A DNA stretch of 55,420 nucleotides from sequence record SRR22947727_316; one strand, given 5' to 3'. The translations under genes were made by a program, and so were the position numbers. The stretch's first letter is position 1, and each line of letters starts with the position of its first letter. Shown here piece after piece: positions 887 through 33,500 of this stretch. The notes below the pieces were generated by a model. That model was not told the DNA's origin, made no database searches, and saw only the letters and a list, made by a program, of their open reading frames with translations.

Positions 887-1975
887 TTATATACCAGCAA
901 GTCTTCTAATATCAACGATGTTGCTATTGAATTGACTGCTGTTTACAATGTTAATTTGTTTATCGCCTGTTACTTCTGTGCCTTCATTTATAGCCTGTTT
1001 TTTCGCTGGAGTCCTACCGTTTAGAACAGATGGTATGTACTTTTCGAATTGCTTTCGTAAAGCACCCGTCTGCACACTCTCCAGTAGATTGTTCATTATT
1101 TCTTTTTGTTCTGTGTTCAATGGGTGTGTTAACTCATTGATTACGTTACTTCTCTCTGCCGCTTCTTTAATTGTAGCAATTTCTAATTCTTTTGCTTCAA
1201 TTACTTTTTGCTTCTCATTGACAGTCTTCATCGCTTCTTCTGCCTGTAGTTTCGAAATGTCCACTACCTTCATAAGTTTTGCTGTTTCACCTTTTTCATT
1301 CAAGAACGATTGTGAATATTCTTGTTGATAAGATTCAAACAGTCTGCGACCAAAGTCGTTTTTGCGAGCCGCTTCAATGTCTTCTTTTAATGAACTGATC
1401 TCTGACTTAAGAGTTTTGCTCACTATTTCTGACACTTTACTAGCACCTTTTTTCACAAAGTTACTTCTAACTTTTTCAAAATGTGCTTTTGCTTCTCTGA
1501 TAAGACGTACTTTTGTTTCAGCAACGTCTTGTTTGTCTTTTTGAAATTCTGCAATTTCTTTAGACAGAGCTTCTACCACAAATTCCTCAAGTTTGACAAA
1601 ATTTTCTGCCATAACTTTTTGGTCTGCGTATAGTTCAGCAACTTCGCCTTTAAGTTTTTCAAAAACAAACGATTTTAACTTTTCTGCGTGTTCACCGATT
1701 TGAGTAGCATACTTAACTCTCTCTTCAGCAAGTGCTTTCTTGTCGTCTGCGAACTCTGCCATTTCTGCTTCGAGTCTTTCAGATACCATTTTATCAACAG
1801 CCTCTGTTAAATTTGCTTTGTCGTGTTCATACTTCTCTGCAAATTCTTTACGAAGATCAGCAGTGGCAGAAAGTTTGTTTTCTTCAACTTTCTGGTTCCA
1901 TGCGGATTCTATTTCTGCTCTGATCTCTTCGGAAATACCGTTATTTTCAAAAAGTGATTTCAGTGCTTCTAACAT
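887..1975 (-). CDS. gp22: Prohead core scaffold protein, gp22-like
   Basis: Long E/K-rich coiled coil between the protease and capsid genes. Start moved from 2008 to ATG 1975 (MLEALKSLFE), which has an AGGAG SD. Confidence 0.8.
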   Translation of the reverse strand: MLEALKSLFENNGISEEIRAEIESAWNQKVEENKLSATADLRKEFAEKYEHDKANLTEAVDKMVSERLEAEMAEFADDKKALAEERVKYATQIGEHAEKLKSFVFEKLKGEVAELYADQKVMAENFVKLEEFVVEALSKEIAEFQKDKQDVAETKVRLIREAKAHFEKVRSNFVKKGASKVSEIVSKTLKSEISSLKEDIEAARKNDFGRRLFESYQQEYSQSFLNEKGETAKLMKVVDISKLQAEEAMKTVNEKQKVIEAKELEIATIKEAAERSNVINELTHPLNTEQKEIMNNLLESVQTGALRKQFEKYIPSVLNGRTPAKKQAINEGTEVTGDKQINIVNSSQFNSNIVDIRRLAGI

Positions 1976-1985
1976 TCTTTTTCTC

Positions 1986-2609
1986 CTATTTAGATTGGAG
2001 TTTTCCAATTATGTTTATTAGTTGTTCTTTTAGATATTTTTGTGCCTTTGTGTCCCTTGCTGAGTTAAATGCTTTTAAACCACCCTTTGTGTTCATTAGA
2101 TGCTCGTATATTGGCTCAGGATATGCTCCCGGTGCCGATGGTTGTGCAACGATATCTACTGTGATGATTTCAAAATCTGATACATGTCCGGATCCGTCTT
2201 CTTTAACGTTACCAGAACCCCTACTAGACACACCAAGTTTAACTCCGCTTTCCAGCATTGTTTTAACTAGTTGTCCCATAGGAGTCGGTAACACTTTTAA
2301 TTTTCCGTATCCGTTTGGTCCGTCCATCCACATTTCATTTACCATGTGGCTGACACGGTCAAGGTTAATATTAAGTCCTTCAGGATGATCCACTTCGCCC
2401 AACACCGAGTATCCACCAGTGACTTGATCGTTAAGTGTGCTGACAGCCCTCTGGATTTCGTTAACAGGATACACTCTCTGGTTGGCGTTTTTAACACCTC
2501 CCTGAATGCAGATTCCCTTCATGTAAAGGGATTTACCGTTGTGTTCGTCCTTAGTCTCAACGACTATTCCCGCCTGGTCAAAAGTCAGCGTCTCACGTAA
2601 TGATAACAT
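1986..2609 (-). CDS. gp21: Prohead protease, gp21-like
   Basis: Motifs KNANQRVYP, LGEVDHP, INLDRVSH, LPTPMGQLV, GVSSRGSG and DIVAQPSAPGAY. Confidence 0.93.
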   Translation of the reverse strand: MLSLRETLTFDQAGIVVETKDEHNGKSLYMKGICIQGGVKNANQRVYPVNEIQRAVSTLNDQVTGGYSVLGEVDHPEGLNINLDRVSHMVNEMWMDGPNGYGKLKVLPTPMGQLVKTMLESGVKLGVSSRGSGNVKEDGSGHVSDFEIITVDIVAQPSAPGAYPEPIYEHLMNTKGGLKAFNSARDTKAQKYLKEQLINIIGKLQSK

Positions 2610-2631: not shown

Positions 2632-3612
2632 TTAACTGCCAATTGTTGACTTTGCAGAAGAATCATCTTCTGTGCTAGTCTTGGCCTTTGGTGCCGCAAC
2701 AGGTTTCGCTTTAGCGCCTGGTACATTAATGTTACCTGCGTTGTCTTCTTTTGGAGCAGGTGCTTTACCACCTTTTTCCTCACCGCCTTTAGCGATGTTA
2801 GAAGCCGTTCCGCCCATATCATTTTTGCCAGCAACTGGTGATTTAGAGTTATCTGAACCATCTGTATGCGTTACGCCTACTTTGTTCACATATTCTCTAA
2901 TTTCTTCACTTGCTGTTTTTGGCACTGCTGTTTCTACTGCTGGTTGTTCACCAAGTTCAGGAGCAACTGCGATTGCAGTTTCACCTTCTGCTGATTGATC
3001 TACAAAGGCTTCGTCTTCTTTTTCTTCGCCGTTGTCTTCTGCGTCGTCGCCTTCTGCGTCGTCGCTTTTGTCCTCATCGCCCATCATTTTTTCAAATTCG
3101 GCTTTAAGGTCATCAATAGCATCTTCTAGGTCAACTACTCTGTCTTCGATTTCTTCTTCACCTTTTTCAGAGTCGTCGCCGTTATCCATATCACCTGCTG
3201 GTGCTTCGATGTCAGCAACCATATCGTCTGTTGCGTCTCCACCGTGTGCTTCTACTGGTGCAATTTCTGTGTTTTCGATGTCTAATAAAGATTCGTCTGT
3301 TGTTTCGTCATCTTTTGATGCTTCTTCAACTGCTTCGTCTTCTTTAGACTCATCTTTTGATGCTTCATCAACTGCATCATCTTCTTTAGACTCATCTTTT
3401 GATGCTTCGTCAACTGCGTCGTCATCTTTTTTAGATTCGTCTTCTTTTGAAGTTTCTTCTACTTCGATATCTTTGATATCATTTTCTAAAAGACCTTCAT
3501 AGATTGATCTTGATTTTTCCACAACGATATCATGGAAAATTTCTTCTGCCGCTGTTCTATCGTCAGCGACTAATTTTTCAAGCATTTGCTCGAATTTGCT
3601 TTTATCTGACAT
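2632..3612 (-). CDS. Highly acidic prohead core/internal protein (position of T4 gp67/gp68)
   Basis: D/E-rich 326-aa ORF with AGGAG SD directly upstream of gp21; contains an internal tandem repeat. Function inferred from position and composition. Confidence 0.6.
   Translation of the reverse strand: MSDKSKFEQMLEKLVADDRTAAEEIFHDIVVEKSRSIYEGLLENDIKDIEVEETSKEDESKKDDDAVDEASKDESKEDDAVDEASKDESKEDEAVEEASKDDETTDESLLDIENTEIAPVEAHGGDATDDMVADIEAPAGDMDNGDDSEKGEEEIEDRVVDLEDAIDDLKAEFEKMMGDEDKSDDAEGDDAEDNGEEKEDEAFVDQSAEGETAIAVAPELGEQPAVETAVPKTASEEIREYVNKVGVTHTDGSDNSKSPVAGKNDMGGTASNIAKGGEEKGGKAPAPKEDNAGNINVPGAKAKPVAAPKAKTSTEDDSSAKSTIGS
3308..3460. repeat. 42-bp in-frame tandem repeat (~3.5 copies) encoding DEASKDESKEDDAV
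   Basis: TCATCTTTTGATGCTTC recurs at 3308, 3350 and 3392 (period 42), followed by a degenerate fourth copy. Confidence 0.9.
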
Positions 3613-9781: not shown

Positions 9782-10351
9782 ATGCAAATTTACACACAAA
9801 TTGTGCGACCCCAAGAGCTGGATGAAGACGACCTCTGGATTCCCTGTCTTAAAACTGCCACTGTTGAACACTCTCCTGCAGATGCACAAGCACTGATCAT
9901 CACTCACATCGAAGCCATCAATCATTATGCACACAGTCTGTCAGAACTGTTGGAACAAAAAGTGTATGCGGTGGGATCCAAGACTTATGACCGCCTTGTG
10001 GCGGCGGGCTTTGCAGAAAATAATATTCATTGGCGACACACAGCCAACGATTTAAAACTGCGTTCCAAAAACACAGGCCCACTCACTTGGCTCCACGGAG
10101 ACAAGTACGCCAGAGATTTTCGTGCCATACCAGAAGTTACTGCCATACAGACTTACGAATCGAAACCAGATCCTTCAGCCATCAAACAGATATTGAAATT
10201 GGAGCCAGATGTTGTTCATGTGTATTCAGAATCAGTATTAAAAGAATTAGAGATTAGAAACTGGAGTCACACCAAGTTGAAACACGTTGCGTCAGCGGAA
10301 CCAGATGTCAGTGTGTGGTTGGATTGTGAATCATTTGATCCTAATGTTTAA
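9782..10351 (+). CDS. hemD: Uroporphyrinogen-III synthase (HemD)-like protein, shortened and divergent
   Basis: Ordered HemD-like motifs: IPCLKT, ALIITH..AI, KVYAVGSKTYDRLVAAGF, LTWLHG...RD, IQTYES, PDVVHVYSES. Confidence 0.65.
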   Translation: MQIYTQIVRPQELDEDDLWIPCLKTATVEHSPADAQALIITHIEAINHYAHSLSELLEQKVYAVGSKTYDRLVAAGFAENNIHWRHTANDLKLRSKNTGPLTWLHGDKYARDFRAIPEVTAIQTYESKPDPSAIKQILKLEPDVVHVYSESVLKELEIRNWSHTKLKHVASAEPDVSVWLDCESFDPNV

Positions 10352-10730
10352 GAACGACTCACGTCGTTCTGCTTTTCGCTTGTGCTCAAGCATTTAAGCA
10401 ATTACATAACGAAGTTATGTTGTCATCATGCAGACAGTTGATCCATACTTCACCCAGTAACGGGAAAAGTATGTAGACATCATGCGAGACTAGCCTGCCA
10501 TTTTGTGAGAGGAACTTTTGTGCGGAAGCGGTAACCCGTCAACTCCCTATTCCAGACTTCATCAGTCACGGTCAACTGCGGCACCCTTCACAAACAAAGT
10601 GAGCAGTTGTGATGTTGTATCTTTTTCACAGAGCATCTTCTTTTATGCCTTTAGTAAGCACTTTCCTTGCAACTCAGGATTCACCATTATGTTTCAAATG
10701 CATTTCCTGGATCTACGATCAGTTGTGTTG
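10351..10730 (-). ncRNA. Large structured non-coding RNA candidate (~380 nt), family not recognised
   Basis: Largest intergenic gap in the window and visibly GC-richer than its flanks. About 10 complementary helices including a likely pseudoknot. G-U wobbles and a GUGA (GNRA) tetraloop work on the minus strand. Confidence 0.7.
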
Positions 10731-11165
10731 CTATATTGCCTTGTTGTAATTTTTAAGTTCTTCTTTTAGGATTCTTGAACCACCAACTCTTACATTGATG
10801 ATACCGTTGTAATATTCGTCGGATTCTAATACTCGTCTTTCGAATTGTTCCCGAGCTTCGAGATAACTCATTACGCCTCTAGTTTTGCAAATGTACAATA
10901 TTTCTCTTGTAAACTTGTCTTCGCCTAATTCTGTCACGTCAGCATTTAGATGATCTGAGGAACCCCAATATTCTTTCCAGTCAGATTCAACTTTGCTTCT
11001 ACGTTTGTTTATCCTGCCTTTAAGTGGCGGACGTGTCTTCTTGAATTTTGCTAATTTTTTACCCACATACCGTTTACCATTGGTTGTGTTTGTGATCAAA
11101 TACACAAATCCTTCACAGTCTTCCGGCAATGTTTGAATGGGTTTACCCTGATAAGTCCATGGCAT
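10731..11165 (-). CDS. Minimal GIY-YIG family endonuclease (Seg-like catalytic domain only)
   Basis: GFVYLITNTTNGKRYVGKK, YWGSS, FTREIL, conserved Glu (YLEAREQ) and YYNG; basic insert KFKKTRPPLKGRINKRRSK. Confidence 0.85.
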   Translation of the reverse strand: MPWTYQGKPIQTLPEDCEGFVYLITNTTNGKRYVGKKLAKFKKTRPPLKGRINKRRSKVESDWKEYWGSSDHLNADVTELGEDKFTREILYICKTRGVMSYLEAREQFERRVLESDEYYNGIINVRVGGSRILKEELKNYNKAI

Positions 11166-11182
11166 ATGGACATACTTACTGA

Positions 11183-11401
11183 TTATTTTTTTCGCTGTTG
11201 CTGTTTGTGGATCTTGGACACTTTATATTGTTCTTCTAGCTCTTTACGTCTAAGACGTGCCAAAATTCTAATTTCCGCCAGTGCCAATCTAGCGGCAACT
11301 TTTGTGGCAAGGCTTTGCCTCTTGGCAAACAACTCGTTTGCTTTAAAATACGCCATGTATGCTTGGGTCAGTTTGTCGTGAGTATCATCTTGAATGGTCA
11401 T
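11183..11401 (-). CDS. Small basic helical hypothetical protein (72 aa)
   Basis: MTIQDDTHDKLTQAYMAY...ARLALAEIRILARLRRKE; start overlaps the end of gp46. Confidence 0.65.
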   Translation of the reverse strand: MTIQDDTHDKLTQAYMAYFKANELFAKRQSLATKVAARLALAEIRILARLRRKELEEQYKVSKIHKQQQRKK

Positions 11402-13169
11402 TTGTTTCCACATCGTTGGCATATGCTGTGAAGCCGTTTTCTTTAACAACTCTAAGCACGTTGTTCACTCTGCCCATTAATTCATCTTTATGAGATATTA
11501 AAAATATGTTTTTGCCTGATTCTCTGCTCATTTTTTTCAGAATAGCCAAACTGCTTTCAACTCCTGCTGAATCCATACCAGAATCTATCAATTCATCTAA
11601 AAACAACAAGTTAATTTTTTGATACAAATTTTCCCATACATCTCTAAACGCAAAACTTAAACCTAAAATTAATCTATTTCTTTCACCTCTACTCAGATTG
11701 TCAAAGTCTAGTTCTTGTCCCAGTTGAGTGATCTCCACACTTAAATCATTTTTAAATGTGACCAAGTGTGGAAGACCCAATTGATCCAAGTAGTGAGTTA
11801 ACCTGTTGTTCAAAAAGGTTAAGTTTTGATCAATTATTTTTTTCCTTATGAAGGAATCTTTGTTTGTTAACAGTTTGTGTAAAAATTCTTGATGTTCTTT
11901 TAATTTTTGCAGTGTATTTGCTGTGTCCCAATCTATTTTTTGTACTGCTTGATTTTTTAATTCATCTATTTGATCTAGATATGGATTAGCATCTTCTTTT
12001 TTGTTAACAAGTGCTGTGTTGATTGATTCTACATATTGTCTGTGATCATATGCTTCTTTTATGGTGTCATAGTATGTGTTAGGTCTTTGATCCAAATCAC
12101 CCACTGCTTCGATGTCTTTTACAGTTTGTTCCAATTGTTGTGCTAATTCCATCACATAACTGTTGGATTCTCCATATTCTTCTTCCAATGTTTTCTGCAT
12201 TTGTTCTATTTTATCTTGAGGCAGATCCTGACCACAAGCATAACAAGTGGCTTTGTGATTAAGTTTTTCTAAATCATCATGCAATTTTTTTGCTGTCTTA
12301 TCTGCTTGTTCGATGGTTGATTCCAAACCAGCTCTGTCTTTTTGCAATTGTTTTAACGCATCGTTCAGTTTTGTCCAATCTTCAAGTTTTTGATGTGTTT
12401 CTAATTCTTTATCAATGTCTACACTTTCTAACTCTTTTAAGTTTTTTTCTAATTTTTCTATGTCTGTGGTGTTCTGATTTTGCCAAGCACTGCTTTTGTT
12501 GTTTAAACTGTGAATTGTTTCTTCTACTTTTTCATTGCTAATTTTTAAACCTTCTAAACGTGCTGTTTCCAGTGCTATGTCTTCTTTTGAACGTTTGATG
12601 TGTGTTTTTAAGATGTCTGCTTTTTCAGACAACAACTGAATTCCTAACAGTTGTTCAATTATTTCTTGTTGTTCATTGTTGTGTAAACTTAAAAAAGGTT
12701 GAGTGTATGTGTTCAAAGCCACAATGTGTTTGAACATTTTTGGATTCATTCCAATCATTCTGTTTAGGTCTTCTTGTGTTTTACGTGAATCGCCTTGACT
12801 GACATCTGATAGTTCTTGCTCTTGATCGTCTATGTAATATTTCATTACATTGGGTTTTCTCCCCCGCTCCACTCTGTAAGTTATACCATCTTTTTCAAAT
12901 GCTATTGTGACCAACATAGCCTTGCCGTTGGTTTTGTTCACTAGATTGTCTTTACGTATCTTGGTAAGTGCTTCACCATACAATGCGTAACTCAGTGCAT
13001 TAACAATAGTGGTTTTACCTGTACCATTACGTGATCCTGCATCATCACCACCCATGTCTAAGTTTTCACCCAACACCAATGTTAACAATTTTTGTTGAAA
13101 GTCTATTGCTTGGGTTTGATTACCCACACTCATAAAGTTTTTTACAGTGAGTGTTTTAATCAGTATCAT
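11385..13169 (-). CDS. gp46: Recombination endonuclease ATPase subunit, gp46 (SbcC/Rad50-like)
   Basis: KNFMSVGN, Walker A NGTGKTT, zinc hook CYACGQ, signature LSRGE, Walker B LLFLDE and ISH. Confidence 0.95.
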   Translation of the reverse strand: MILIKTLTVKNFMSVGNQTQAIDFQQKLLTLVLGENLDMGGDDAGSRNGTGKTTIVNALSYALYGEALTKIRKDNLVNKTNGKAMLVTIAFEKDGITYRVERGRKPNVMKYYIDDQEQELSDVSQGDSRKTQEDLNRMIGMNPKMFKHIVALNTYTQPFLSLHNNEQQEIIEQLLGIQLLSEKADILKTHIKRSKEDIALETARLEGLKISNEKVEETIHSLNNKSSAWQNQNTTDIEKLEKNLKELESVDIDKELETHQKLEDWTKLNDALKQLQKDRAGLESTIEQADKTAKKLHDDLEKLNHKATCYACGQDLPQDKIEQMQKTLEEEYGESNSYVMELAQQLEQTVKDIEAVGDLDQRPNTYYDTIKEAYDHRQYVESINTALVNKKEDANPYLDQIDELKNQAVQKIDWDTANTLQKLKEHQEFLHKLLTNKDSFIRKKIIDQNLTFLNNRLTHYLDQLGLPHLVTFKNDLSVEITQLGQELDFDNLSRGERNRLILGLSFAFRDVWENLYQKINLLFLDELIDSGMDSAGVESSLAILKKMSRESGKNIFLISHKDELMGRVNNVLRVVKENGFTAYANDVETNDHSR

Positions 13170-21101: not shown

Positions 21102-24100
21102 ATGTCATCCACAGATAGACAAAACAGATTATTGCTGGCAGAAGACTGGAAAAGAGTATATCAGTCTTACAAAAATGCGGAATTCAAAAGTTACGACTTT
21201 GATACTATTCGCAGAACAATGATCCAGTACATCAGACAGAATTATCCAGAAGATTTCAACGATTATATTGAATCATCTGAGTACTTGGCACTGATAGATT
21301 TGATTTCATATCTAGGACAAAATTTGGCTTTCAGAACAGACTTGAATGCTAGAGAGAATTTTTTAGAAACAGCAGACAGACGAGATTCGATATTAAGATT
21401 AGCAAGATTAATCAGTTACAATCCAACAAGAAATCAATGTGCAAATGGTTTGATGAAAGTTGTAAGTGTCAGCACAACTGAAAATGTTGTGGACAGTAAT
21501 AATTTAAATTTAAGCGGACAAACAGTCAGTTGGAATGATGCCGGCAACACAAACTGGAATGAACAATTTACAAAAGTGTTAAATGCTTCATTGGCAGAAA
21601 ATGAAAAATTTGGCAATCCAGTAAAATTAGAAAACATAGATTCAATCCCAACCAGCCAATACAGAATCAATGCCAACAGCACCGAAGTGCCTGTGTATGC
21701 TTTTTCAAAATCCGTCAACGGACAAAACTTACCATTTGAAGTTGTTTCAACTTCTTTTGACAATGGTACTATTATAGAAGAAGCACCACTAACAGGAAGA
21801 AAATTCAGTGTGCTTCACAGAGATGATGGCAAAGGCAACAGCAGTAATAACACAGGATTTTTTGCACACTTTAGACAAGGTGTACTTGATAACGGTGACT
21901 TCACAATTGATGTACCATCAAACAATCAATCAGTTGCAATTGAATCCAGCAATGTAAACAACACCGATGTTTGGTTATATCAATTGGACACTGACACAGG
22001 GTTAGAAGATGCTGAATGGACAAAAGTTGATGCTGTAACAGGTAACAATGTTATATACAATTCAACAACAAAAAATTTAAGAAATATTTACACAGTGTTG
22101 AGTGACACAGATGATTCAATCAGTCTTAAATTTGCAGATGGAATATTTGGAAATTTACCGCAAGGTAATTTTAAAGTATACTACAGAAGAAGTAAAAATC
22201 AAAATGTTAGAATTACTCCTGCTGATATGCAAAACGTTCAAGTGGATGTACAGTATGTTTCATCAAACAATCAAATAGAAGTTTTAACATTAACATTTGG
22301 ATTGCAATACACAGTTGATAATGCAACAACATCTGAAACCAACAACAACATCAGATTAAATGCTCCAGCAACATACTACACACAAAACAGAATGATCACC
22401 GGTGAAGATTATCAAATTGCACCATTGGGAACTAATCAAGAAATTATTAAAGTAAAAGCAACAAATAGAACTTCAAGCGGAATATCAAGATATTATGATT
22501 TAATAGATGCCACAGGAAAATACAGCAACACAAATGTGTTTGGTGCTGATGGCATAATATACAAAGAAGAAACTGAAAATGTTGACTCGTTTAGTTTTTC
22601 AACACAAACAGACATTGAAGGCGTAATTATAAATCAATTAGAACCGTTGTTATCTAAAAATCAAACTAGAAACTACTACATAGAAAAATTTTCTAAAATA
22701 TTACTAACTGATTTAATTCCAGTTTGGCAACAAGTTACAACTGCTACAAATGAATCCACAGGTAAATTAATAGATGCTGTGAACGTCTTAGATTATCAAG
22801 TTGGCACATACACAGCAAGTCAGTTGAAATATATCGAACCAGGTGCTATGATTAAATTTATTGCACCAACAGGCAAGCATTTTATGGAAGACAATTCATT
22901 AATGAGTGGAGCCGCAGATCATCCAGGATCAAAAGAATACATTTGGACATCAGTTGTTAGTGTGTACAATGATGGCACAACCAATACCACAGCAGGAGCA
23001 GGAGCAATTAAATTCAACGATGTTATTCCTACAGGTGCTATTGTTAGTGAAATATTACCTAAATTTGCAAAACAATTTTCTGATGATGTTAAAACAGTTA
23101 TTATTGACCAGGCTTTTGCTTATAACAATTTTGGAATACGTTATGATGTACAAACAAGAAAATGGATGGTTGTTGACGAAAACAATTTAAATGTGTATGG
23201 AGATTTCAGCATTGGTAAAACAGGTGATGAATCAAATCAGCAACTAGATTCAAGTTGGTTAATCAAATGTATCAACAACGGTGCTACTTACACAATCACA
23301 TACAGAGGTTTAAGATATGTGTTTGAAAGCAAAAAAGAAGTAAGATTCTTTTATGACAGTGCTGATAGAAATTTCAATGCCAAAACAGGAACAACACTTC
23401 AAGACAAAGTGAGTGTGATGTCAGTGAACACAAAACCAGACAGTAACAATGCATTCAACAACGATATCAATTTTGCTGTGTCCACTGAGTACAGATCTTT
23501 AAGCGGATATGTAGACAGTGCTAAAATAGAACTTACTCAATTTGATTCTGATCAAGATGGCATAGTGGACAATCCAAATGCTTTTGATCTTGTGGTTGAT
23601 CCTGCTACTAATCCAACTACAAAATATGTTTTCCAAAAATTAATAAATGATAGCGATGGAACACAACAGTATCAATACGTTAGTGCAGGCACAGAAAACA
23701 TTTATGTTAGACAAACATCGGTGGGTACTATTGGAGATTATCCAAACAATTCAATTGTGTACTTGATAGACAGCAACAGTTTTAAACAGGTTAACACAAC
23801 AACCAACACCACTGCAACTGTAACAAATTATGTTGCACACATTGGAAGAGACGGTGTTAAGTTTCAATACGTTCACACAGTGGACGGTAACACAAGATTA
23901 GATCCTAGTTCATCTAACATAATGGATATGTATATTTTAACAAGAACATATGATATCAATTTTAGATTATGGTTAGCAGGAGCAACAGCAACTAAACCAC
24001 TATTACCCAGCAGTGATTCGTTGTACACAAACTTTAATACACCGTTAGCAAAAATTAAATCAATCAGTGACACGATTGTGTATCATCCGGTAAAATACAA

Positions 24101-24557
24101 AATATTATTTGGATCACAATCCGACACAGGTTTACAAGCAACATTTAAAATTGTTAAAAATTCCAGTCAAGTTACTAATGATAGTGATATTAAAAGTCGA
24201 GTTATCACAGCAATAAATCAATTCTTTGCTTTAGAAAATTGGGAATTTGGTGATACATTTTATTTCTCAGAATTAAGCACGTATGTGATGAACGAATTAG
24301 CACCAGACATAGCAACATTTGTTATTGTGCCTAAAGAAGGTTCAAAAGCATTTGGAAGTCTGTTTGAAATTAAATCAGAAAATGATGAAATTTTTATTAG
24401 TGGCGCAAAAGTTTCTGATGTTGAAATAATAGATGCTGTAACAGCCTCTAAACTTAAAGCAGACGGAAACATCGCAACAAGTTCATCAACAGTTAGCACA
24501 TTAAGTGGAACATTACCTACCAGCTCAGGAGGCTCTAGTGGGGGAAGTGGATATTAA
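21102..24557 (+). CDS. gp6: Baseplate wedge subunit, gp6-like (1151 aa)
   Basis: YDFDTIR, FNDYIESSE..ALID, ENFLETA.RRDS, FADGIFG..P and APATYYTQNRMITGEDY. Confidence 0.88.
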   Translation: MSSTDRQNRLLLAEDWKRVYQSYKNAEFKSYDFDTIRRTMIQYIRQNYPEDFNDYIESSEYLALIDLISYLGQNLAFRTDLNARENFLETADRRDSILRLARLISYNPTRNQCANGLMKVVSVSTTENVVDSNNLNLSGQTVSWNDAGNTNWNEQFTKVLNASLAENEKFGNPVKLENIDSIPTSQYRINANSTEVPVYAFSKSVNGQNLPFEVVSTSFDNGTIIEEAPLTGRKFSVLHRDDGKGNSSNNTGFFAHFRQGVLDNGDFTIDVPSNNQSVAIESSNVNNTDVWLYQLDTDTGLEDAEWTKVDAVTGNNVIYNSTTKNLRNIYTVLSDTDDSISLKFADGIFGNLPQGNFKVYYRRSKNQNVRITPADMQNVQVDVQYVSSNNQIEVLTLTFGLQYTVDNATTSETNNNIRLNAPATYYTQNRMITGEDYQIAPLGTNQEIIKVKATNRTSSGISRYYDLIDATGKYSNTNVFGADGIIYKEETENVDSFSFSTQTDIEGVIINQLEPLLSKNQTRNYYIEKFSKILLTDLIPVWQQVTTATNESTGKLIDAVNVLDYQVGTYTASQLKYIEPGAMIKFIAPTGKHFMEDNSLMSGAADHPGSKEYIWTSVVSVYNDGTTNTTAGAGAIKFNDVIPTGAIVSEILPKFAKQFSDDVKTVIIDQAFAYNNFGIRYDVQTRKWMVVDENNLNVYGDFSIGKTGDESNQQLDSSWLIKCINNGATYTITYRGLRYVFESKKEVRFFYDSADRNFNAKTGTTLQDKVSVMSVNTKPDSNNAFNNDINFAVSTEYRSLSGYVDSAKIELTQFDSDQDGIVDNPNAFDLVVDPATNPTTKYVFQKLINDSDGTQQYQYVSAGTENIYVRQTSVGTIGDYPNNSIVYLIDSNSFKQVNTTTNTTATVTNYVAHIGRDGVKFQYVHTVDGNTRLDPSSSNIMDMYILTRTYDINFRLWLAGATATKPLLPSSDSLYTNFNTPLAKIKSISDTIVYHPVKYKILFGSQSDTGLQATFKIVKNSSQVTNDSDIKSRVITAINQFFALENWEFGDTFYFSELSTYVMNELAPDIATFVIVPKEGSKAFGSLFEIKSENDEIFISGAKVSDVEIIDAVTASKLKADGNIATSSSTVSTLSGTLPTSSGGSSGGSGY

Positions 24558-27500
24558 TGGCATACGACAACAATCAAAAAGACTTCAGTTTGCCTGCAGG
24601 CAAGGATGACGGTAAAAGAGAATCTTCAGAATTTTTACCTAAGTATTTTAGAACTCCAGTCAACAACAAATTTTTACACAGCACAGTTGACCAACTAATA
24701 TCTCAAGGAACATTAGAAAAATTAAATGCTTACTATGGACGTAAGATTACAGATGCCTACAAAGCATCTGATTTGTATGTGCCTGAAGTAACTGCTGATA
24801 GAGAAAATTACAAATTTGAACCCAGTATAGTGCAACAAGACGATTTAGGTAATGTAAACTTTTATTCAGACTACATAGACTTTGTTAATCAAATACAAAA
24901 TTTAAATGGTGATGTTTCTGATCACAGTGTTCTTAATGCTCAAGAATATTATGCTTGGTCACCAAGAATCGATTGGGACAAATTTGTAAATTACAGAGAA
25001 TATTTTTGGATGCCTTATGGTGCATCTACAGTCACAATATCAGGACAACAGCGAAATGTTATTAGCACATACTCAGTAACAAAGTCTGATCAATCAAACA
25101 ACTATGCTTACATCTTTACGCCCAACGGGCTTACAGCAAACCCAACATTAAAATTATACAAAGGTCAAACATACAAGTTTGATATTGATGCAGAAGGATT
25201 GCCTTTTGTTATAAGAACACAAAGAATACTAGATGCTTCGTACAATGTTACTGATGGTATCGATGTGCAAAGTATTGAAAAAGGAATTATAACTTTTGAA
25301 GTGAAAGAATCTGCACCAGAAAAACTATATTACGGAAGTGATAACGATATTAATGCTTGGGGATTGATTCAAATATACGACATTGAAGAAAATTCAACAA
25401 TAGATATTACTAATGAAGTATTAGGCAAAAAGAATTACACCACTGCTAATGGAGTAGCATTATCAAATGGTATGAAAATAAATTTTGCTGGCACAGTTAC
25501 ACCTGTAGAATATGCTGAAAAAGATTATTTTGTTGAAGGTGTGGGTGACGCAATTCAATTGATAGATGCACAAGAACTAGAAGTAAAGAGTGCTTTCACT
25601 GATGTAACACCAATTCCATTTGATTCAAAAAACTTTGACACTGTGGGATTTGGAACAGCCACATCGTATGCTGTTGATAAAGATTACATTGTTATAAACA
25701 GAGCATCTCCAGACAGAAATCCTTGGAGTAGATCCAATAGATGGATTCATAAATCTGTTATAGAAGAAAGTGCTAAAGCAAACGGACAAATTGCAAACAT
25801 TGATCAAGCCACAAGAGCACGAAGACCTATCATTGAATTTGAAGCAGGTATCAAACTATATGATTTTGGTTTTAAAAAGAAAGAAAATATTGATCTTATA
25901 GACACAGTTACAACAGATGTAATGAGTGATGTTGAAGGATCTCAAGGTTTTTTCATTGACGGCATCGCATTAACAAATGGAATGAAAGTGTTGTTTACTG
26001 CTGACAACGATCCTCTTGTTAAAGACAAAATATTTGAAGTTAAATTTATTAAGTTTACTGAAGGAACAACAGTTACAACTCAAATCAGTTTGGTTGAAAG
26101 TGCAAATGCTTCTCCATCACAAGGAGAAACTATTTTGGCTACTGACGGAAATGTGAATCAAGGAAAATGGTTCTATTACAATGGAACAACATGGAAATCA
26201 GCACAAGTAAAAAATAAAGTTAATCAAACTCCTTTGTTTGATTTGTTTGATAGCAATGGCGTAAGTTTCACTGACAGTATTGTATATCCTAACAGTTCGT
26301 TTATGGGTAACAAAATATTCACTTATGTTGAAGGCACAGGCACAGTAGATACTGAATTAGGATTTGCATTAACTTATTCAAATGTAGAAAACATTGGAGA
26401 TATTGTTTTTGATTTTGATTTATTAAACAAAAATTACACATATCAATCACAAAATATCAATGGAACTTTAACTTCTGAAACAGCATTTTTGAAAAAATAC
26501 AATGCTAGTGGCAACTTTACAACAGTAAATGGTTGGACTAAAGCACCCACTGACAGTTTTCAAAAAGTTAATAGACAGTATGTTGCATCTAACAATCAGA
26601 AAAATGATTTTGCTATTGACGTTTACAAAAAGAGTGGCGATTTAAATGATCTAAACGTGAATGTATTTGTTAATAATGTTAAAAAAATTGAAAATACCGA
26701 CTGGTCAATTTTAAGAATCAACAATGAAGCATATGTTAATTTCACTACTAATTTAACAGTTAATGATATAGTTGTAATTAAAACAAGCAGTGCAACACCT
26801 AAAAACAGTAATGGTCATTATGAATTTCCAACAAACTTACAATCCAATCCACTTAATGCAAAAACAACAAAATTCACAGTTGGGCAAGTAACTGATCATG
26901 TTAAATCAATTACTAATGAATTAAAAGACATTCAAGGTGTAACTCCAGGATTTAGCAATTTAAGAGACTTCCCAAATGCAACACAATACGGTAGAAAATT
27001 TTTACAACACAGTGGACCAATGGTGTTGGCTTCGTACTTGTTAAACAACAAAGATGTAAACCTAATTTCAGCAGTCACTAGAAGTCAGAACGATTACTTT
27101 AAATTCAAAAGATCATTTATCAGTGCTATGGACGATTTAGGATTTGACGGAACTCCTAGTCAAGTGGTTGATAAAATTTTAATTAAACTCAACAAAGACA
27201 ATAATAATTCATTACCGTATTTCCAAACAGACATGCTGGGTAGTGGTGCATTCAAAACCACTAGACACACAGTTTTAGATATAGATAATAAATTTTTTGC
27301 ACTGTCTAATAACTTTAATTTAACAGCATTATCAACTAAAGCAGTGTACGTGTATCACAACGATACACAGTTAGTGCATGGTGTTGATTATGTATTTGTT
27401 AACGGATTTGTTCAAGTTACGAAAAAAGTTGCACTAGATGATATCGTTGTGGTTAACGAGTTTGAAACAACTAACGGATCACATATTCCAGCAACACCAA

Positions 27501-30500
27501 CTAAATTAGGACTATATCCAAAATACACTCCTAAAATTTATTTAGACACAACAGCAATTACTCCAGTGAACGTTATTCAAGGGCATGACGGAAGTATCAT
27601 AGTTGCATTCAATGACTTTAGAGATGATGCTATATTGGAAATGGAGAGAAGAATTTTTAACAATATTAAAACAACATACGATGATGAATTGTTTGGTATT
27701 AAATCTTTTGTGCCAAGAGCATACAGCACAAATAAATTTACATTTGAATCAATTAATAAAACATTATTAGGCGATTTCAATGACTGGTTAACATTTACAG
27801 GCAACGAAGATTACACAGCAAACACTTATCACACACAAGACAACAGTTTGACTTGGAATTACAGTAATATGGTTTCTCCTCAAAATGAAAACTTGTTAGG
27901 ATTCTGGAGAGGTGTGTACACTCATGCTTACGACACCGACAGACCAAATATTGCTCCATGGGAAATGCTTGGATATTCGCAAGAACCTACATGGTGGGGA
28001 ACTGTGTATGGTCCAGCACCGTACACAAAAGACAATTTAATTTTGTGGCAAGATTTAGAGAAAGGCATTGTAAGAGAACCTAATAAAAAAATTGTAATCA
28101 AAAACAAATACAAAAGACCCGGTTTAACAAACAATATCCCAGTGGACAGCGAAGGCAATATCAGAAGTCCGTATGATAGTGCATATGCAAGAGGTCAAGT
28201 ATTACAACTTACCAAAGATAAATTTAAGTTTGGTGATTATTCTCCTATAGAAAATACATGGAGAAGAAGTGTGCATTATCCGTTTGCACTTTTAAAAAGT
28301 TATATTTTACATCAACCAAACAAAGCAATAGGTATAGGATTAGACACAAATAAAATTACCAGAAATGCTAGTGGACAGATTGTGTACAATTCGTCAACTG
28401 CTATAAGACCTTCAGATATTATCTGGCCGAGCAGTGTTGATGACAGCACAGTAACATTAACTGCTGGATTATTAAACTATGTTTATGAAATAGTTGAAAA
28501 TTCTCAAACAACAAACTATACAGATTACAAAAAACAGTTTGCTGGATTACAAACACAAATAGGCTTTAAAGTAAGAGGATACAGCAACAAAGACAAATTT
28601 AAACTGTTGTTAGACAGTAAAACTCCGTTAAATTCAACAACACTATTTGTACCAGAAGAAAACTATCAACTGATTTACAATGTGTCTACACCAGTAGAAA
28701 TTTTGACCTACAGTGGATTAATTATTGAAAAGTTAGCAAGCGGTTTCAGTTTAAAAGGATATGATAAAAATGATCCTTACATTAGATACCATTCTCCATT
28801 TGAACAAACTAGTGATCCAGTAATAACAGTGGGCGGAATTAGTTCTTCATTTGTTAATTGGAGTGAAAACAAAAGATATGACAGTGGGTCTTATGTAAAA
28901 TTTGCAAACAATTTTTATGCTACTGATGAAACACATATTTCAACTGCAAACTTTGATGATTCAAAATTTATCAAGTTAGTAGAATTACCATCTGAAGGCG
29001 GTGCATCTGCTGTTTTAAGAAAAACTTTCTTAACAGATACAGTTCAATCTGTAGCATACGGAACAGTGTTTGAAGACATTCAAACAGTTGTTGATGTGAT
29101 ACTGGGTTATGAATCATATCTTAAAGCCAAAGGTTTTGAATTTGATCAATATGATCCAACAACACAATTGGTCGCTAACTGGCAATTAAGTGCTAAAGAA
29201 TTTTTATTTTGGACAACACAAAACTGGGACGAAGGTGCAGTAATCAGTTTAAGTCCTGCCAGCAAAAAAATAGTTGTTACATCACAATATGCTACAACTG
29301 ATAATGTTATAGAAAATTACTACTCTTATGGTGTGTTAAAAGAAGATGGTAATAAACTGGATAGAGTAAATTTACGAATTGTTAGAAAATCAAACACGTT
29401 TGAATTGTTCACAAAGAACACAATAAATGGAATATACTTTGCTAAAGTTCCACTTGTACAAAAAGAACATGTATGTTTAATAGATAACACAACATCATTT
29501 AACGATTTAATTTATGATCCAGCAAGTGGGTACAAGCAGGATAGAATTAAAATGTTAGGATATGTTACAGAATGGGATGGTAGTTTAAATATTCCAGGAT
29601 TTGTATTTGATGAAGCAAAAGTTGTACTTTGGGAACCTTACACCGATTACTCAATGAGTGATGTGGTAAAACACAAACAATTTTATTACACAGCAAACAC
29701 AAAATTAAAAGGAACAACAGAATTTAATGATAACAATTGGCGTAAATTAGACAACAAACCAGAAAGCAGTTTGTTATCAAACCTTGATTATCAAACAAAC
29801 CAATTTGCTGATTTCTATGATTTAGACACAGATAACTTTGACAGACAACAACAAAAACTTGCTCAACATTTAATTGGTTATCAACCTAGAGAATACCTAA
29901 GTAACATTATTAACGATGAAGTCAGCCAATATAAATTTTATCAAGGATATATTAAAGAAAAAGGAACAGCAAATGCTCTTACCAAATTGTTTGATGCACT
30001 AGCAAGTGCTGACAAAGAAAGTTTAGAATTTTTTGAAGAGTGGGCAATCCGTAAAGGACAATACGGAGCAGTGGACACCTTTGACGAAGTAGAATACAGT
30101 CTAGATGAAACTCAAATCAGATTAAATCCTCAACCTATTTTACTAACAAATGATCAACCAGCAACAGCAACTGATTTGGTTTACAGAATACAATCGGGAC
30201 AGACTTATCTAGCACCTAAAGATTATCAACACACACCATTTCCTGTAAAGTATGACAAAAACACATATATCAAAACTGCAGGACCTGTAAATCCAATAGA
30301 TATTTCGTTAACACTGGCACAGTATGATGACTTATTAACTTCAACAAGTGTAGCAACTCTAGATGAAGGACAGTATGTATGGATTGGTAACAACAAAGGT
30401 ACTTGGAGTGTTTTAAGATACAGCAACACAGATCAACAAATTGTGTCGATTATCAAAAACGGCAGTGTTATTTCAGTAAACACATTGAATAATCCAGACA

Positions 30501-33500
30501 TAGCAGTTGGTGAAATATTTGTAGTAAATGCTAATGGTACAGATTATGTTTTCAAATCTACGTTTGTGGGAATAACATCAATTCAATGTGAAGACGTAAC
30601 AGGATTTGCTTCAATAGACTCTGCTGTAGGCTTTATTAAACGATTCACTGAATCAAGATTAAATTCTATAAATGACGTCAACACAAGAATAAATGATCAA
30701 GGTCTTAAAGATAATGAAAAATTTTGGATTAACGAATCAGATGACGGTAAATGGAAAATTGTTAACAATAAATTTGTGTTTAAAAAACACAATGAATTAA
30801 GTTCTACAAGCACATCAGGAGATCAAAGTTTTGGCACGGTGATAGCCGCAAACAAACAAAACTCAACAGTATTGGTTAGTCAACCATCAGATGGAGATGG
30901 AAAAATTTATGTATTCACAAGAGGTTCTGAGAGCGGATCATTAATATTAGTACAAATTATTGAAGCACCAACAACTGATCCATTGTTAACAAATATCGAT
31001 CTATTTGCTTCAGGCAGTAGTTTTGGTAAAGCAGTTGACATTTCTCCAGATGGAAATTTTGTAGTAATAGGTGCACCTGATGCCAGTAATTTAAAAACTG
31101 AGTACAAAGGAGTGTACAGTACAAGTTCTAATTACAATGTTGGAAACATAGTTCAGTACAAACAACAACTTTGGAGAGCAACCAATCAAGTGGAAGGTGC
31201 AATAGCACAGGATTTATTCTCAACATTTGATTCATCTGCTTTTTACAAAGAGAACGTGGGATTCCAAACAACAAGTTTATTGATAGGCGACAGTGTATTC
31301 CCAAATCAAACAACAGATCATATACTGGTAAGAGCATCCACAGAACAGTACACAGCAACTAAAATAGGTGATAGACTGATATTAGATTATGTTGATTTCA
31401 GTAGTGATTATCCAATAGACAGAAACAATTATGCTAAAGTGGCGAATCAACCTTTTAATGGAGTTGGATCTCCAACAATTAAAGACAATATTTTCAGCGG
31501 TGCTGATATGCCTATTCAAGAAAAGATTGACGAAATTTTAGAAGTATCAAATACATTAACAGATCCTGTTGTAGGAAATTTATTAAACACAGACACAGCA
31601 CAAGGTACTGTGGTGTATGTGAGAAAAGTTGCCGCAAAATCTATAATATATCTTAAAGATGTGAGTGGTGTATTTGCTGAAAGCGGAAGTTTAACTTTGG
31701 ATATATTGCCTATAGGAGTGTATTCAAGAGTGAATTCAGAAGACTACGATTACCTTGGTGGTTGGTGGAAAATAAACATAGGTGCTAATGTAACCACAAA
31801 CGCAGGATCAGATGTTACAACCAACGTTGTAATTCAAGACATAAAAGTATTAAATGAAGTTAGAGACACTAATAGATTTTTCAGTTCAATGGAACAACCT
31901 ATTGCTCCAATAACACCTCAAGCACCATTGGTAAAAGCACAATTTGGAATTGGAACATATTATCAAGATTATTACATTGACGCAGGATCGAACACATGGG
32001 TTACTAATCCAAGTCCTCAAGCAATTTTAAGCAATAAATGGTTTGTAAGAACAGGGTACGACATAGCTCATGACAGCACATTAAATTCTAGCAATTCAAC
32101 CAACTACGTAAGTGTTTGGTTTAATAATGTTGATTCAGGCGCTTTTGATTTTGCCGGATTGAATATTGACAATGACGACACAAATGGACTTAAAGAAGTA
32201 GTAGACATATGGGAAGGTTATGTTGATGTAGATTCACAGCCAGACAACAATGCAAATTATTATTTCCCATCAGTAGGAGTGCATCAAATATATGATCCTA
32301 ACACTCAAGCACAGGCAGATGTTACGTTTGTTCAGTTTATAGGATTAGAAAAAATAAGAATTTACTTTAATAATTCAAACAACAAACAGTTCAGTTTAGG
32401 ATCTAATGCCAGTGCACCATCAACTATCACTAGAATAGGCGGAGGTGTAAACAGAACTATAGGATCTATTGAACAAACAGTTCAATCAGGAAATGCAGAC
32501 GGAGACATTTTAGTTTTCCAACATACATCATCTATTACAGCATCTGGAAATCCTGACTTCTACACAGTTAACGATATGGAGTACTGGATATGGGACGAAT
32601 TTGAAAATGTACCAGGAATTAATCAAAGTGCTAACATACCAGGAAGCCAAAACAGAGATTGGGTCCAAACATACAATATTCCAATTGGGGAAGGTGTTCA
32701 GAGTGTTTACACCAATCAAGGTGCATTTTTAATTTACAAAAAGAATACAAAAGGTCTGTTCGAATACAATTCAGCATACACTGTGCCTGACACTCAAAGT
32801 GGTTTAAGGTTAGGAAGTAAAATTCAATTACGTGATGTTGGAAATGTTACAACAGCATTTATTGGTGCTGAAGGTAATGGAACTTCCAGTTTACCAGGAA
32901 AAATTTATTTTGTAGATTACAGTGCTACAAAAAATTGGCGTCTAGGTGTTGATCAATATTATATGGGCGTGTTTGATGATCAAACTGATTACCTAAAAGA
33001 CGAATTAGTTGTGTTTAGCAATCAGTTATACAAAGCAAAAACAAACATCAGTGCAAATTCTTGGCAATTAAGTTTATGGGATTTACAAGATACGCACACA
33101 GACTTTTTAGGATATGTACCTAATGACAGTGGTATTGAATTACAAGGTGATTCAACTCTAAATCAAAACAACTTGATTAAATTTGCAAACACATTTGATG
33201 TTGATACAAATGGTATTAACATTGTGTTAACCAACAAGTACAGCGATGATGGTCAAAATGTTGTTGTGTACAGACAAAGCGACGGACACTATTCATACAA
33301 ACAAACAATAACCCCTGCAGATGATTCTGCTCCAATAATTGACTTTGGTTCAGACATAAGCATATCAGGAGACGGTGAATTGATCGCTATTGGAAGTCCG
33401 TTGAAAGATGTTGTTGATATAGACATGGGATCAGTGTATGTTTACAAAAAAGTTAACAACGATTCTGGACAGTACACATTAAATCAAACACTAGTAAGTC

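Follow-up and report, generated by a model that had tools for sequence, protein, structure and literature searches.

We analyzed a 55,420-nt stretch of DNA from sequence record SRR22947727_316 (the whole stretch is called the window below) and report that a 380-nt gap at 10352-10730, which lies between two convergent genes and holds no credible open reading frame (ORF), encodes a large structured RNA. That this is a functional, folded RNA of the minus strand we regard as very likely. It is about 390 nt long and combines a 5′ domain that differs between branches with a core of two interlocked pseudoknots and a 3′ domain in which the same short word stands in two loops. The RNA is a member of a large and so far uncatalogued family, carried by uncultured T4-like phages of which many are giant, and is a new class by the catalogues and the literature that we searched. 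Taken as a whole, the description of this element as a structured minus-strand non-coding RNA (ncRNA) of such a family, acting in trans as a scaffold for its twin word, is one that we hold with moderate confidence. A preliminary description made from the letters of the window had proposed a large pseudoknotted phage ncRNA on this strand; covariation and strand-specific G-U pairs bear that out, and most of the helices drawn at the time are retained here together with the pseudoknot, while three helices are given up.

Comparison with relatives supports a folded RNA on the minus strand

Folding of the single sequence provides weak evidence (minimum free energy z = -1.95 on the minus strand, a level matched by 5/100 shuffles, and z = -1.64 on the plus strand), and the case rests on comparison with relatives. 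Chance pairing, or the remnant of a decayed gene, would agree with so marginal a score and with an 8-mer repeated once in 380 nt, which is not rare. This explanation is refuted, and retains practically no probability, given a gap that is more conserved than the neighboring genes, the compensatory changes described below and homologs in hundreds of contigs.

Through a neighboring protein we reached 59 related viral loci, all of them collinear. Among 35 distinct sequences spanning the region, mean pairwise identity is 0.90-0.95 in the gap, 0.76-0.88 in the flanking plus-strand gene and 0.84-0.93 in the upstream minus-strand genes, and the gap DNA is still 84% identical where the neighboring protein is only 62% identical. 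Insertions and deletions in the gap measure 1, 2, 4 and 12 nt and fall in loops or remove whole hairpins; with such lengths the gap is therefore not coding. A micro-ORF running from the first AUGAUG to UAA was considered and rejected, being broken by one- and two-base indels in relatives (by eye).

Within the close group most pairs are invariant, and RNAalifold predicts 104 pairs of which 3 show compensatory changes. An alignment of 33 diverse cores made with MAFFT, and not fitted to structure, has 87.6% of cells paired, as against 66.9% in shuffles; 28/36 pairs change on both sides, and the covariation score is 0.469, compared with 0.161 for shuffled alignments (0/500 reach the observed value) and 0.067-0.154 for slid controls. 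A covariance model built from the nested helices only, R1, aligns 63 distinct sequences with 86.3% of cells paired (64.5% in shuffles) and a covariation score of 0.504 (0.164 in shuffles, 0/500 of which reach it, and 0.072-0.174 in slid controls). Run on the window, R1 yields a single match, at 10499-10644 (117.7 bits, E = 2.3e-28). We also used an alignment-free duplex test, which sets the duplex energy of a strand with its own partner strand against that with the partner strands of other sequences. For each of PK1, PK2, P7, P8, P9 and P13, 0/10000 permutations were as low.

The cells at the model's pairs include 226 G-U and 74 A-C combinations, and pairing is therefore higher on the minus strand (86.3%) than on its complement (79.1%). 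The preliminary description had noted several apparent A-C mismatches that turn into G-U pairs on the minus strand. Because of the covariation, the strand-specific G-U pairs, the swaps between GNRA and UNCG tetraloops and the hairpins that are cleanly inserted or deleted, we read the gap as a folded RNA. The alternative of a DNA-level element, in which the DNA itself would serve as an origin of replication, a site of recombination or an array for protein binding, could appeal to direct 6-8 bp repeats spaced by roughly five helical turns, to the adjoining recombination nuclease genes and to a serine recombinase near the one bacterial copy. An excess of G-U over A-C is relevant only to RNA of one strand, however, and the switches of tetraloop class, the covarying pseudoknots and the presence of the stretch in RNA libraries likewise make a DNA element very unlikely.

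A 5′ domain that varies and a core with two interlocked pseudoknots

The 5′ domain of the window RNA is a three-way junction (Table 1), which is swapped for other domains in other branches. A helix at 10670-78/10706-25 had been proposed here: its CAGG/CCUG part survives as P1b, and its GUUGC strand instead pairs with the invariant GCAAC at 10731-10727 rather than with the CAAC first assigned to it. In the alignments, the loop of P1a alternates among GUGA, GAAA, GCGA, GAGA and UACG while its stem changes from C-G to A-U, and the tip of P1b preserves its pairing as GUC/GAC becomes GUU/AAC. P2, proposed earlier as 10645-50/10656-61 and upheld by eye from sequence changes, is seen again in distant branches as GCUAACUNAGGC; the L144 branch does without it.

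P3 is the hallmark of the family, and the window carries its word at 10634-10614 as GCUCUGUGAAAAAGAUACAAC. Across the 63 distinct sequences both P3 helices are paired in 100% of cells, the outer pairs being GC, AU, UA and CG, and the outer stem, already drawn at 10611-14/10634-37, changes on both sides in 3/4 pairs. P4 coincides with another helix of the preliminary description (10573-79/10603-09); it is paired in 87% of cells, and 6/6 pairs change on both sides.

The loop of P4 holds one strand of PK1, the pseudoknot suspected earlier from the complementarity of 10585-94 and 10502-12. PK1 reads UUUGUGA/UCUCACAAA in the window and UUUGCAA/UCUUGCAAA, CUUGAAC/GUUCAAG or CUGGAAC/GUUCCAG in other branches, a covariation that is complete across clades by eye. 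The window shows two interlocked pseudoknots, PK1 at 10594-87/10510-02 and PK2, first identified in this analysis, at 10569-65/10535-31. PK2 takes the forms GUGAC/GUCAC, GUAAC/GUUAC, GUAGC/GCUAC, GACAU/GUGUC and GGCAU/GUGCC elsewhere; it is paired in 96.1% of cells with 4/5 pairs covarying (63 rows), though absent from the covariance model, and in 98.8% on the MAFFT alignment. P7, in the same 63 rows, is 97.5% paired with 4/4 pairs covarying. Together P6, P7 and PK2 replace a helix once placed at 10536-44/10564-71. Some relatives insert an optional GNRA hairpin between P6 and P7 (UCC-GCAA-GGA or UUC-GAAA-GAA), which is absent in the window. Two unpaired words, GAAGUC and GAAGUAUGG, are near-invariant.

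The 3′ domain carries the same word in two loops

Two homologous modules make up the first part of the 3′ domain, followed by a GA-motif hairpin and then by a terminal hairpin, an order that the window shows in full. The helices of this domain lie outside the covariance model and were derived from duplex tests and from reading the alignments. P8 is a short hairpin whose large loop holds the first word. P9, proposed earlier as 10444-50/10467-73, has a conserved CCC/GGG stem beneath a loop of variable length and sequence; in 15/42 cases its cognate partner scores best. P12, which matches the helix drawn at 10404-10/10414-20 and is likewise upheld by eye from sequence changes, has CAGUUGC/GCAACUG, AACUUAC/GUAAGUU or GUUAC/GUAAC as its stem elsewhere, with an unchanged CUUCG loop (by eye).

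The GA-motif hairpin, P13, follows the family word GAGCG-NN(N)-AGCGA, from which the window form, GAGCACAAGCGA, departs by one base; in near relatives the form is GAGCGUAAGCGA. Among the 21/42 cluster representatives that contain the motif pattern, the flanking stem covaries, with the cognate partner best in 14/21, and the whole hairpin is cleanly missing in L096, L073, L113 and L102. P13 accounts better for the region in which a helix at 10378-82/10387-91 had been drawn. A further proposed helix, 10430-38/10489-98, has no cognate advantage (-3.73 vs -3.78 kcal/mol, with 5735/10000 permutations as low) and was abandoned. The terminal hairpin, first described as 10351-58/10363-70 and recognized by eye, is present with 7-9 bp and differing sequence in 21/21 representatives examined.

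A motif occurring twice had also been noted. It is GCAUGAUG, at window positions 10485-78 and 10431-24, and is the local form of a twin-word rule by which the same six bases stand after CUC and after UCU, 35-110 nt apart. Each module consists of RUGR, about eight bases, CUC (word A) or UCU (word B) and then the word itself. The six bases agree in 177/187 distinct RNAs, and at least 2 of the 10 failures still have a repeated word with other flanks. Extended to seven bases, the word has 27 different forms across the family; the two 7-mers of an RNA are identical in 136/187 and differ at one position in 41/187, and 44/72 mismatches over all 187 RNAs are at the seventh position. The pattern is R-N-A-U-R-A, with variation mostly at positions 2 and 5 and with A at position 6 in 51/53 sequences. 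Among 42 cluster representatives the words are spaced 47-67 nt apart, mostly 51-58, and no core columns covary with the word beyond trivial purine-pyrimidine matches.

The word changes by lineage, is the same in both modules and has no complement that we could find (see below). Most simply, a single external partner would read both loops, and it would differ from lineage to lineage. Pairing of the two words with each other was rejected: direct repeats cannot pair, and most words are not self-complementary (by eye). A tRNA-anticodon reading was rejected as well; it fits the invariant A at position 6 and does not fit the match between the loops at the two bases 5′ of the triplet.

A ribozyme would put the repeated word to another use. 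The knotted core would then be catalytic and the words two equivalent cleavage or ligation sites, with the 53-nt segment between them cut out or joined. The compact double-pseudoknot core with its near-invariant unpaired words is what one might expect of such a molecule, as are two identical sites at the spacing given above, flanking a hairpin. No Rfam ribozyme family matches, though, and the RNA-library contigs that cross both words contain no joint inside 10349-10742, contigs being liable to miss rare forms; we consider a ribozyme improbable.

Table 1. Features of the RNA and of the adjoining genes in the window. Position p in the RNA equals 10739 minus the window coordinate. The 5′ limit of the RNA is approximate, since a conserved AGGC word at ~10742 falls within the last codons of the upstream gene.
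Feature	Window coordinates	Strand	Description
Whole RNA, ~390 nt	~10742 to 10349	-	Delimited by conservation profile, alignments and covariance-model match
5′ domain	10669-10731	-	Three-way junction of P1, P1a and P1b
P1	10731-27/10673-69	-	GCAAC/GUUGC; GCAAC invariant
P1a hairpin	10720-17/10713-10	-	Stem GAUC/GAUC, changing to GAUA/UAUC
P1b	10709-05/10679-75	-	AA/AA internal loop, variable tip
P2 hairpin	10645-10661	-	GUGCU ... GGCAU; G-C to G-U in 5/32 sequences
P3 hairpin	10611-10637	-	Family hallmark; variable outer stem around near-invariant GCUCUGUGAAAMAGAYACAAC
P4 hairpin	10573-10609	-	Loop holds PK1 5′ strand, 10594-10587
PK1 3′ strand	10502-10510	-	Pairs with 10594-10587 in P4 loop, 75 nt apart
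PK2	10569-10565/10535-10531	-	GUGAC/GUUAC, second strand in P6 loop; interlocked with PK1
P7	10553-50/10514-11	-	GGAA/UUCC; encloses P6; lies between PK1 strands; domain 10511-10553
P6	10547-43/10528-24	-	GGGAG/CUUCC; 79.2% paired, 3/5 pairs covary
Word A	10479-10488	-	CUC 10488-86, then GCAUGAU 10485-79; twin-word rule; in P8 loop
P9 hairpin	10444-10473	-	Between the two words; followed by invariant GAAGUAUGG
Word B	10425-10434	-	UCU 10434-32, then GCAUGAU 10431-25; twin-word rule
P12 hairpin	10404-10420	-	ACAUAAC UUC GUUAUGU; by eye from alignments
P13, GA-motif loop	10370-10392	-	Stem 10392-88/10374-70
Terminal hairpin	10351-10370	-	Abuts stop codon of the convergent plus-strand gene
Plus-strand gene	9782-10351	+	189-aa protein; stop at 10351
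Minus-strand gene	10731-11165	-	144-aa protein; stop at 10731
72-codon ORF	11183-11401	-	Very basic, probably helical product; overlaps end of SbcC-like gene by 17 nt

Relatives occur in many uncultured phages and in one named bacterium

Distant homologs were reached by scans with invariant words and confirmed by profile search. The P3 word, the most conserved of these, matches at least 120 contigs of viruses and 87 of metagenomes. In a set of 185,579 species genomes its one match is a scaffold of a named bacterium, Terasakiella pusilla. Eight candidates (L126, L130, L131, L132, L145, L150, L177 and L178) were discarded as chance pattern matches in coding sequence that lack the rest of the RNA. 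The core sequences of the family form 50 clusters. Downstream, on the opposite strand, 39/50 have a baseplate-hub gene; upstream, 35/50 have the SbcC-like gene and 26/50 the GIY-YIG gene. Exactly one R1 match was found per source in 67/67 sources, including the window. Searches by blastn with the gap and two divergent relatives against 50,697 phage records gave no true match; the eight weak matches are to homing-endonuclease genes of coliphages, over 51 nt of flank.

The RNA is kept in some branches without the GIY-YIG gene. Conversely, phage Melnitz has the closest GIY-YIG gene of any cultured phage (74% amino acid identity), followed only by a 148-nt gap and small ORFs, with no such RNA. We therefore dropped the idea that the RNA and the GIY-YIG gene form one unit. 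In L239, L179 and L211 the RNA adjoins lambda-J-like central tail-fibre genes, outside the synteny of SbcC-like and hub genes, and so has moved between unrelated phage types.

The bacterial locus, in T. pusilla DSM 6293 (L266), takes in 1507-2070 (-) and ~2700-3300 (+) of a 7-kb scaffold, the distant RNA copy being at ~2700-3300 (+). A serine recombinase (Resolvase, E = 1e-39) and a peptidoglycan-binding transglycosylase adjoin the RNA copy, which suggests that it resides on a prophage or mobile element. No other family copy was found in a bacterium that is both named and culturable, which makes this one a starting point for work in culture.

Neighboring genes in the window

In the window, the RNA stands at the end of a row of genes that runs late sigma factor, SbcD/gp47-like, SbcC/gp46-like, small ORF and GIY-YIG, all on the minus strand. 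The SbcC-like protein is at most 48% identical to that of any cultured phage, with jumbo phages as the top matches. The nearest virus record is a fragment estimated to be 16% complete at 57.7 kb, so that the source is an uncultured giant T4-like phage.

The gene directly upstream of the RNA encodes a SegE-type GIY-YIG domain alone (PF19835, E = 3.6e-37; phrog_447), that is, the catalytic domain without a DNA-binding domain, and matches 773 phage records; many cyanophage records label phrog_447 as 'NAD synthetase', apparently a mis-annotation that has been copied from record to record. The convergent gene encodes a protein with a weak match to HemD (PF02602; 23.6 bits, under the 27.5-bit Pfam cutoff) and none by tblastn against the 50,697 phage records, and it is kept beside the RNA among relatives at 38-99% identity. 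The 72-codon ORF has no Pfam or PHROG match and is retained upstream of the RNA in all but 4 of 45 listed loci; its product could be an RNA partner, for which it is a candidate. Elsewhere in the window, a single ORF of 4891 aa at 24557-39232 (+) follows an ORF of 1151 aa (21102-24557) in a plus-strand gene row.

A proposed trans-acting scaffold and its alternatives

We tentatively propose that the RNA acts in trans as a scaffold that presents its twin word to a sequence-specific reader. The knotted core would provide a rigid frame, perhaps serving as a protein-binding platform as well, and would hold two copies of a programmable word in exposed loops, where a sequence-specific reader acting in trans would read both copies. 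Such a reader would most simply be a nucleic acid that pairs over 6 to 9 bases; failing that, it would be a protein that co-evolves.

Several observations weigh against this proposal or against the data beneath it. Variation in the word is mostly confined to two of the six positions, which leaves a modest 'programmable' range. As for complements of the word, none that matches 7 of 7 bases recurs at a fixed position within the RNA, none of extended length occurs in the 55-kb window and none stands at a fixed position in the flanks of the 42 representatives. As to the fold, PK1 is 65% paired by columns on the model alignment, where its loop strand is not structurally aligned, and related sequences can beat every shuffle without any structure, a risk against which the slid controls and duplex tests guard in part.

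The RNA libraries call for similar caution. Thirteen runs recorded as RNA contain part of the stretch (18 rows, 11 studies); contigs from four runs of four studies cover 10380-10984, 10360-10687, 10434-10734 and 10474-10721, and in run X3 the depth is 20.5 over the RNA vs 3.2 and 9.9 for contigs on nearby genes. Being assembled, these contigs indicate presence in a library rather than ends, strand, level or expression rank, and DNA carry-over is possible. Where no contig of the four runs covers the stretch, this was given no weight, and runs with a small word share were not counted as evidence. Covariation and a presence in RNA libraries are both found; the preliminary description had named a lack of covariation and of transcription as what would point to a DNA element or to chance pairing. 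One of the contigs, 10380-10984, bridges into the upstream gene; co-transcription is thus possible, and the window RNA may be a 3′ untranslated region (UTR), or be processed from the operon transcript, rather than have a gene of its own.

In its full form this alternative holds that the RNA is a cis-acting 3′ UTR element, whose fold protects the operon transcript from 3′ exonucleases or insulates it from the convergent late genes. Beyond the bridging contig, which runs from the GIY-YIG gene into the RNA, it can claim the position of the RNA at the 3′ end of a tightly packed gene row, the lack of a promoter-like site in front of the RNA in the window, and the terminal hairpin, which adjoins the stop codon of the convergent gene, has a terminator-like score on the plus strand and is shared with that gene. 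Yet a stabilizer would need far less than a 390-nt double-pseudoknot fold whose loop words are invariant and whose twin words change together, and the RNA is kept with differing upstream genes, without the GIY-YIG gene and beside unrelated tail-fibre genes. One branch moreover has a strong promoter of its own: in L180, a near-consensus sigma-70 promoter (TTGACA-16-AATAAT, 11/12) lies at 3148-3175 (+), directly upstream of the RNA and in the same orientation, which suggests a stand-alone gene there. We rate a cis-acting element as unlikely.

A more specific form of the trans-acting scaffold would make the twin word a guide, and we view it as doubtful. The RNA would then be an adaptor, encoded by the phage and programmable, that pairs with two identical sites simultaneously. 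These sites might be the two strands of a DNA inverted repeat on which the SbcCD/Mre11-Rad50-type nuclease, whose genes lie just upstream, would act; alternatively, they might lie on two copies of one host RNA, for example in a tRNA loop. The word would be rewritten in both loops when a phage lineage changes its target. If true, this would constitute a new class of RNA-guided system in giant phages.

Whatever its reader, the same word in two loops, specific to a lineage, is an unusual and testable clue that predicts a sequence-specific reader. The family is also abundant, with hundreds of contigs from uncultured marine and freshwater T4-like phages, and is present in metatranscriptome libraries.

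Relation to known RNA families

Few large RNAs are known to combine several pseudoknots with dozens of covarying pairs, and the majority of these are ribozymes, riboswitches or parts of central machines. Rfam 15 (4227 families) has no match at gathering score in the whole window, the RNA included, and a scan of 10000-11700 at E up to 10 returned nothing relevant. ARAGORN predicts 0 tRNA or tmRNA genes in the window, Rfam matches no tRNA, tmRNA or RNase P there, and no exons are present; the earlier judgment that this RNA is none of these, nor an intron, thus stands. Among 20 divergent relatives (121 kb), Rfam recognizes only RF01718, discussed below, with no match to GOLLD, ROOL or a ribozyme family. 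The literature that we searched holds no description of the full RNA, the supplementary lists of Weinberg 2010 and Fremin 2023 lying outside that search. Candidates in a 2023 survey of viral structured RNAs average 67 nt (PMC10690425) and may include pieces of the RNA described here.

The group I introns of T4-like phages are pseudoknotted, a few hundred nucleotides long and associated with GIY-YIG endonuclease genes. The window RNA resembles them in being pseudoknotted, of similar size and next to a GIY-YIG-type gene. It differs in that there are no flanking exons, the upstream SbcC-like gene being complete and the downstream DNA belonging to a convergent gene, in the absence of an Rfam match (RF00028) and in that some family members have the RNA and lack the GIY-YIG gene. 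Its strands, moreover, follow one another as P4 / PK1 / P4′ / PK2 / P7 / P6 / PK2′ / P6′ / P7′ / PK1′, in contrast to the P3-P8, P7 order of group I. A group I intron with its 5′ half upstream of the endonuclease gene was considered and rejected, as the 219 nt between the SbcC-like and GIY-YIG genes hold the 72-codon ORF and no non-coding half.

In a T-box, a loop shows a short variable word followed by a conserved purine, and a tRNA anticodon base-pairs with that word. The window RNA is reminiscent of this arrangement, having a variable loop word followed by a conserved purine (the A at position 6). In contrast to a T-box, it has no Rfam match, no downstream gene on the same strand to regulate and two identical words instead of one; moreover, the two bases preceding any codon-like triplet are also identical between the loops, which is more than anticodon pairing by itself would call for.

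Closer in kind are GOLLD, of about 800 nt, and ROOL, of about 580 nt. The window RNA shares with them that it is a large structured orphan phage RNA with conserved unpaired words and tetraloops, found by comparative analysis, and is set apart by its shorter length of ~390 nt, by the lack of an Rfam match and by having no loop that we found to be complementary to the twin word and so able to mediate self-assembly. GOLLD (RF01998) and ROOL (RF03087) have been described from phages and prophages as large ornate RNAs (Kretsch et al., 2025, PMC12286853).

One catalogued motif does touch the family. Polynucleobacter-1 (RF01718, 141 nt) matches directly 5′ of P3 and on the same strand in 2/20 relatives, at 83.2 bits in L356 and 38.7 bits in L286, where the gathering score is 37 bits, a score that the window RNA does not reach; even at E up to 10 it shows no match to this model. 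Because of this position, the motif appears to be an alternative 5′ domain in one branch of the twin-word RNA family. In its original table, Polynucleobacter-1 is listed without a function, as a possible cis-regulator, from Burkholderiales and from fresh water or estuary (Weinberg et al., 2010, PMC2864571). Like the window RNA, it is an orphan with no known function; the window RNA has a different three-way junction as its 5′ domain, and the motif covers none of the core, the pseudoknots or the twin words. Our findings thus re-frame a possible cis-regulator of 2010 as the front third of one branch of a larger RNA.

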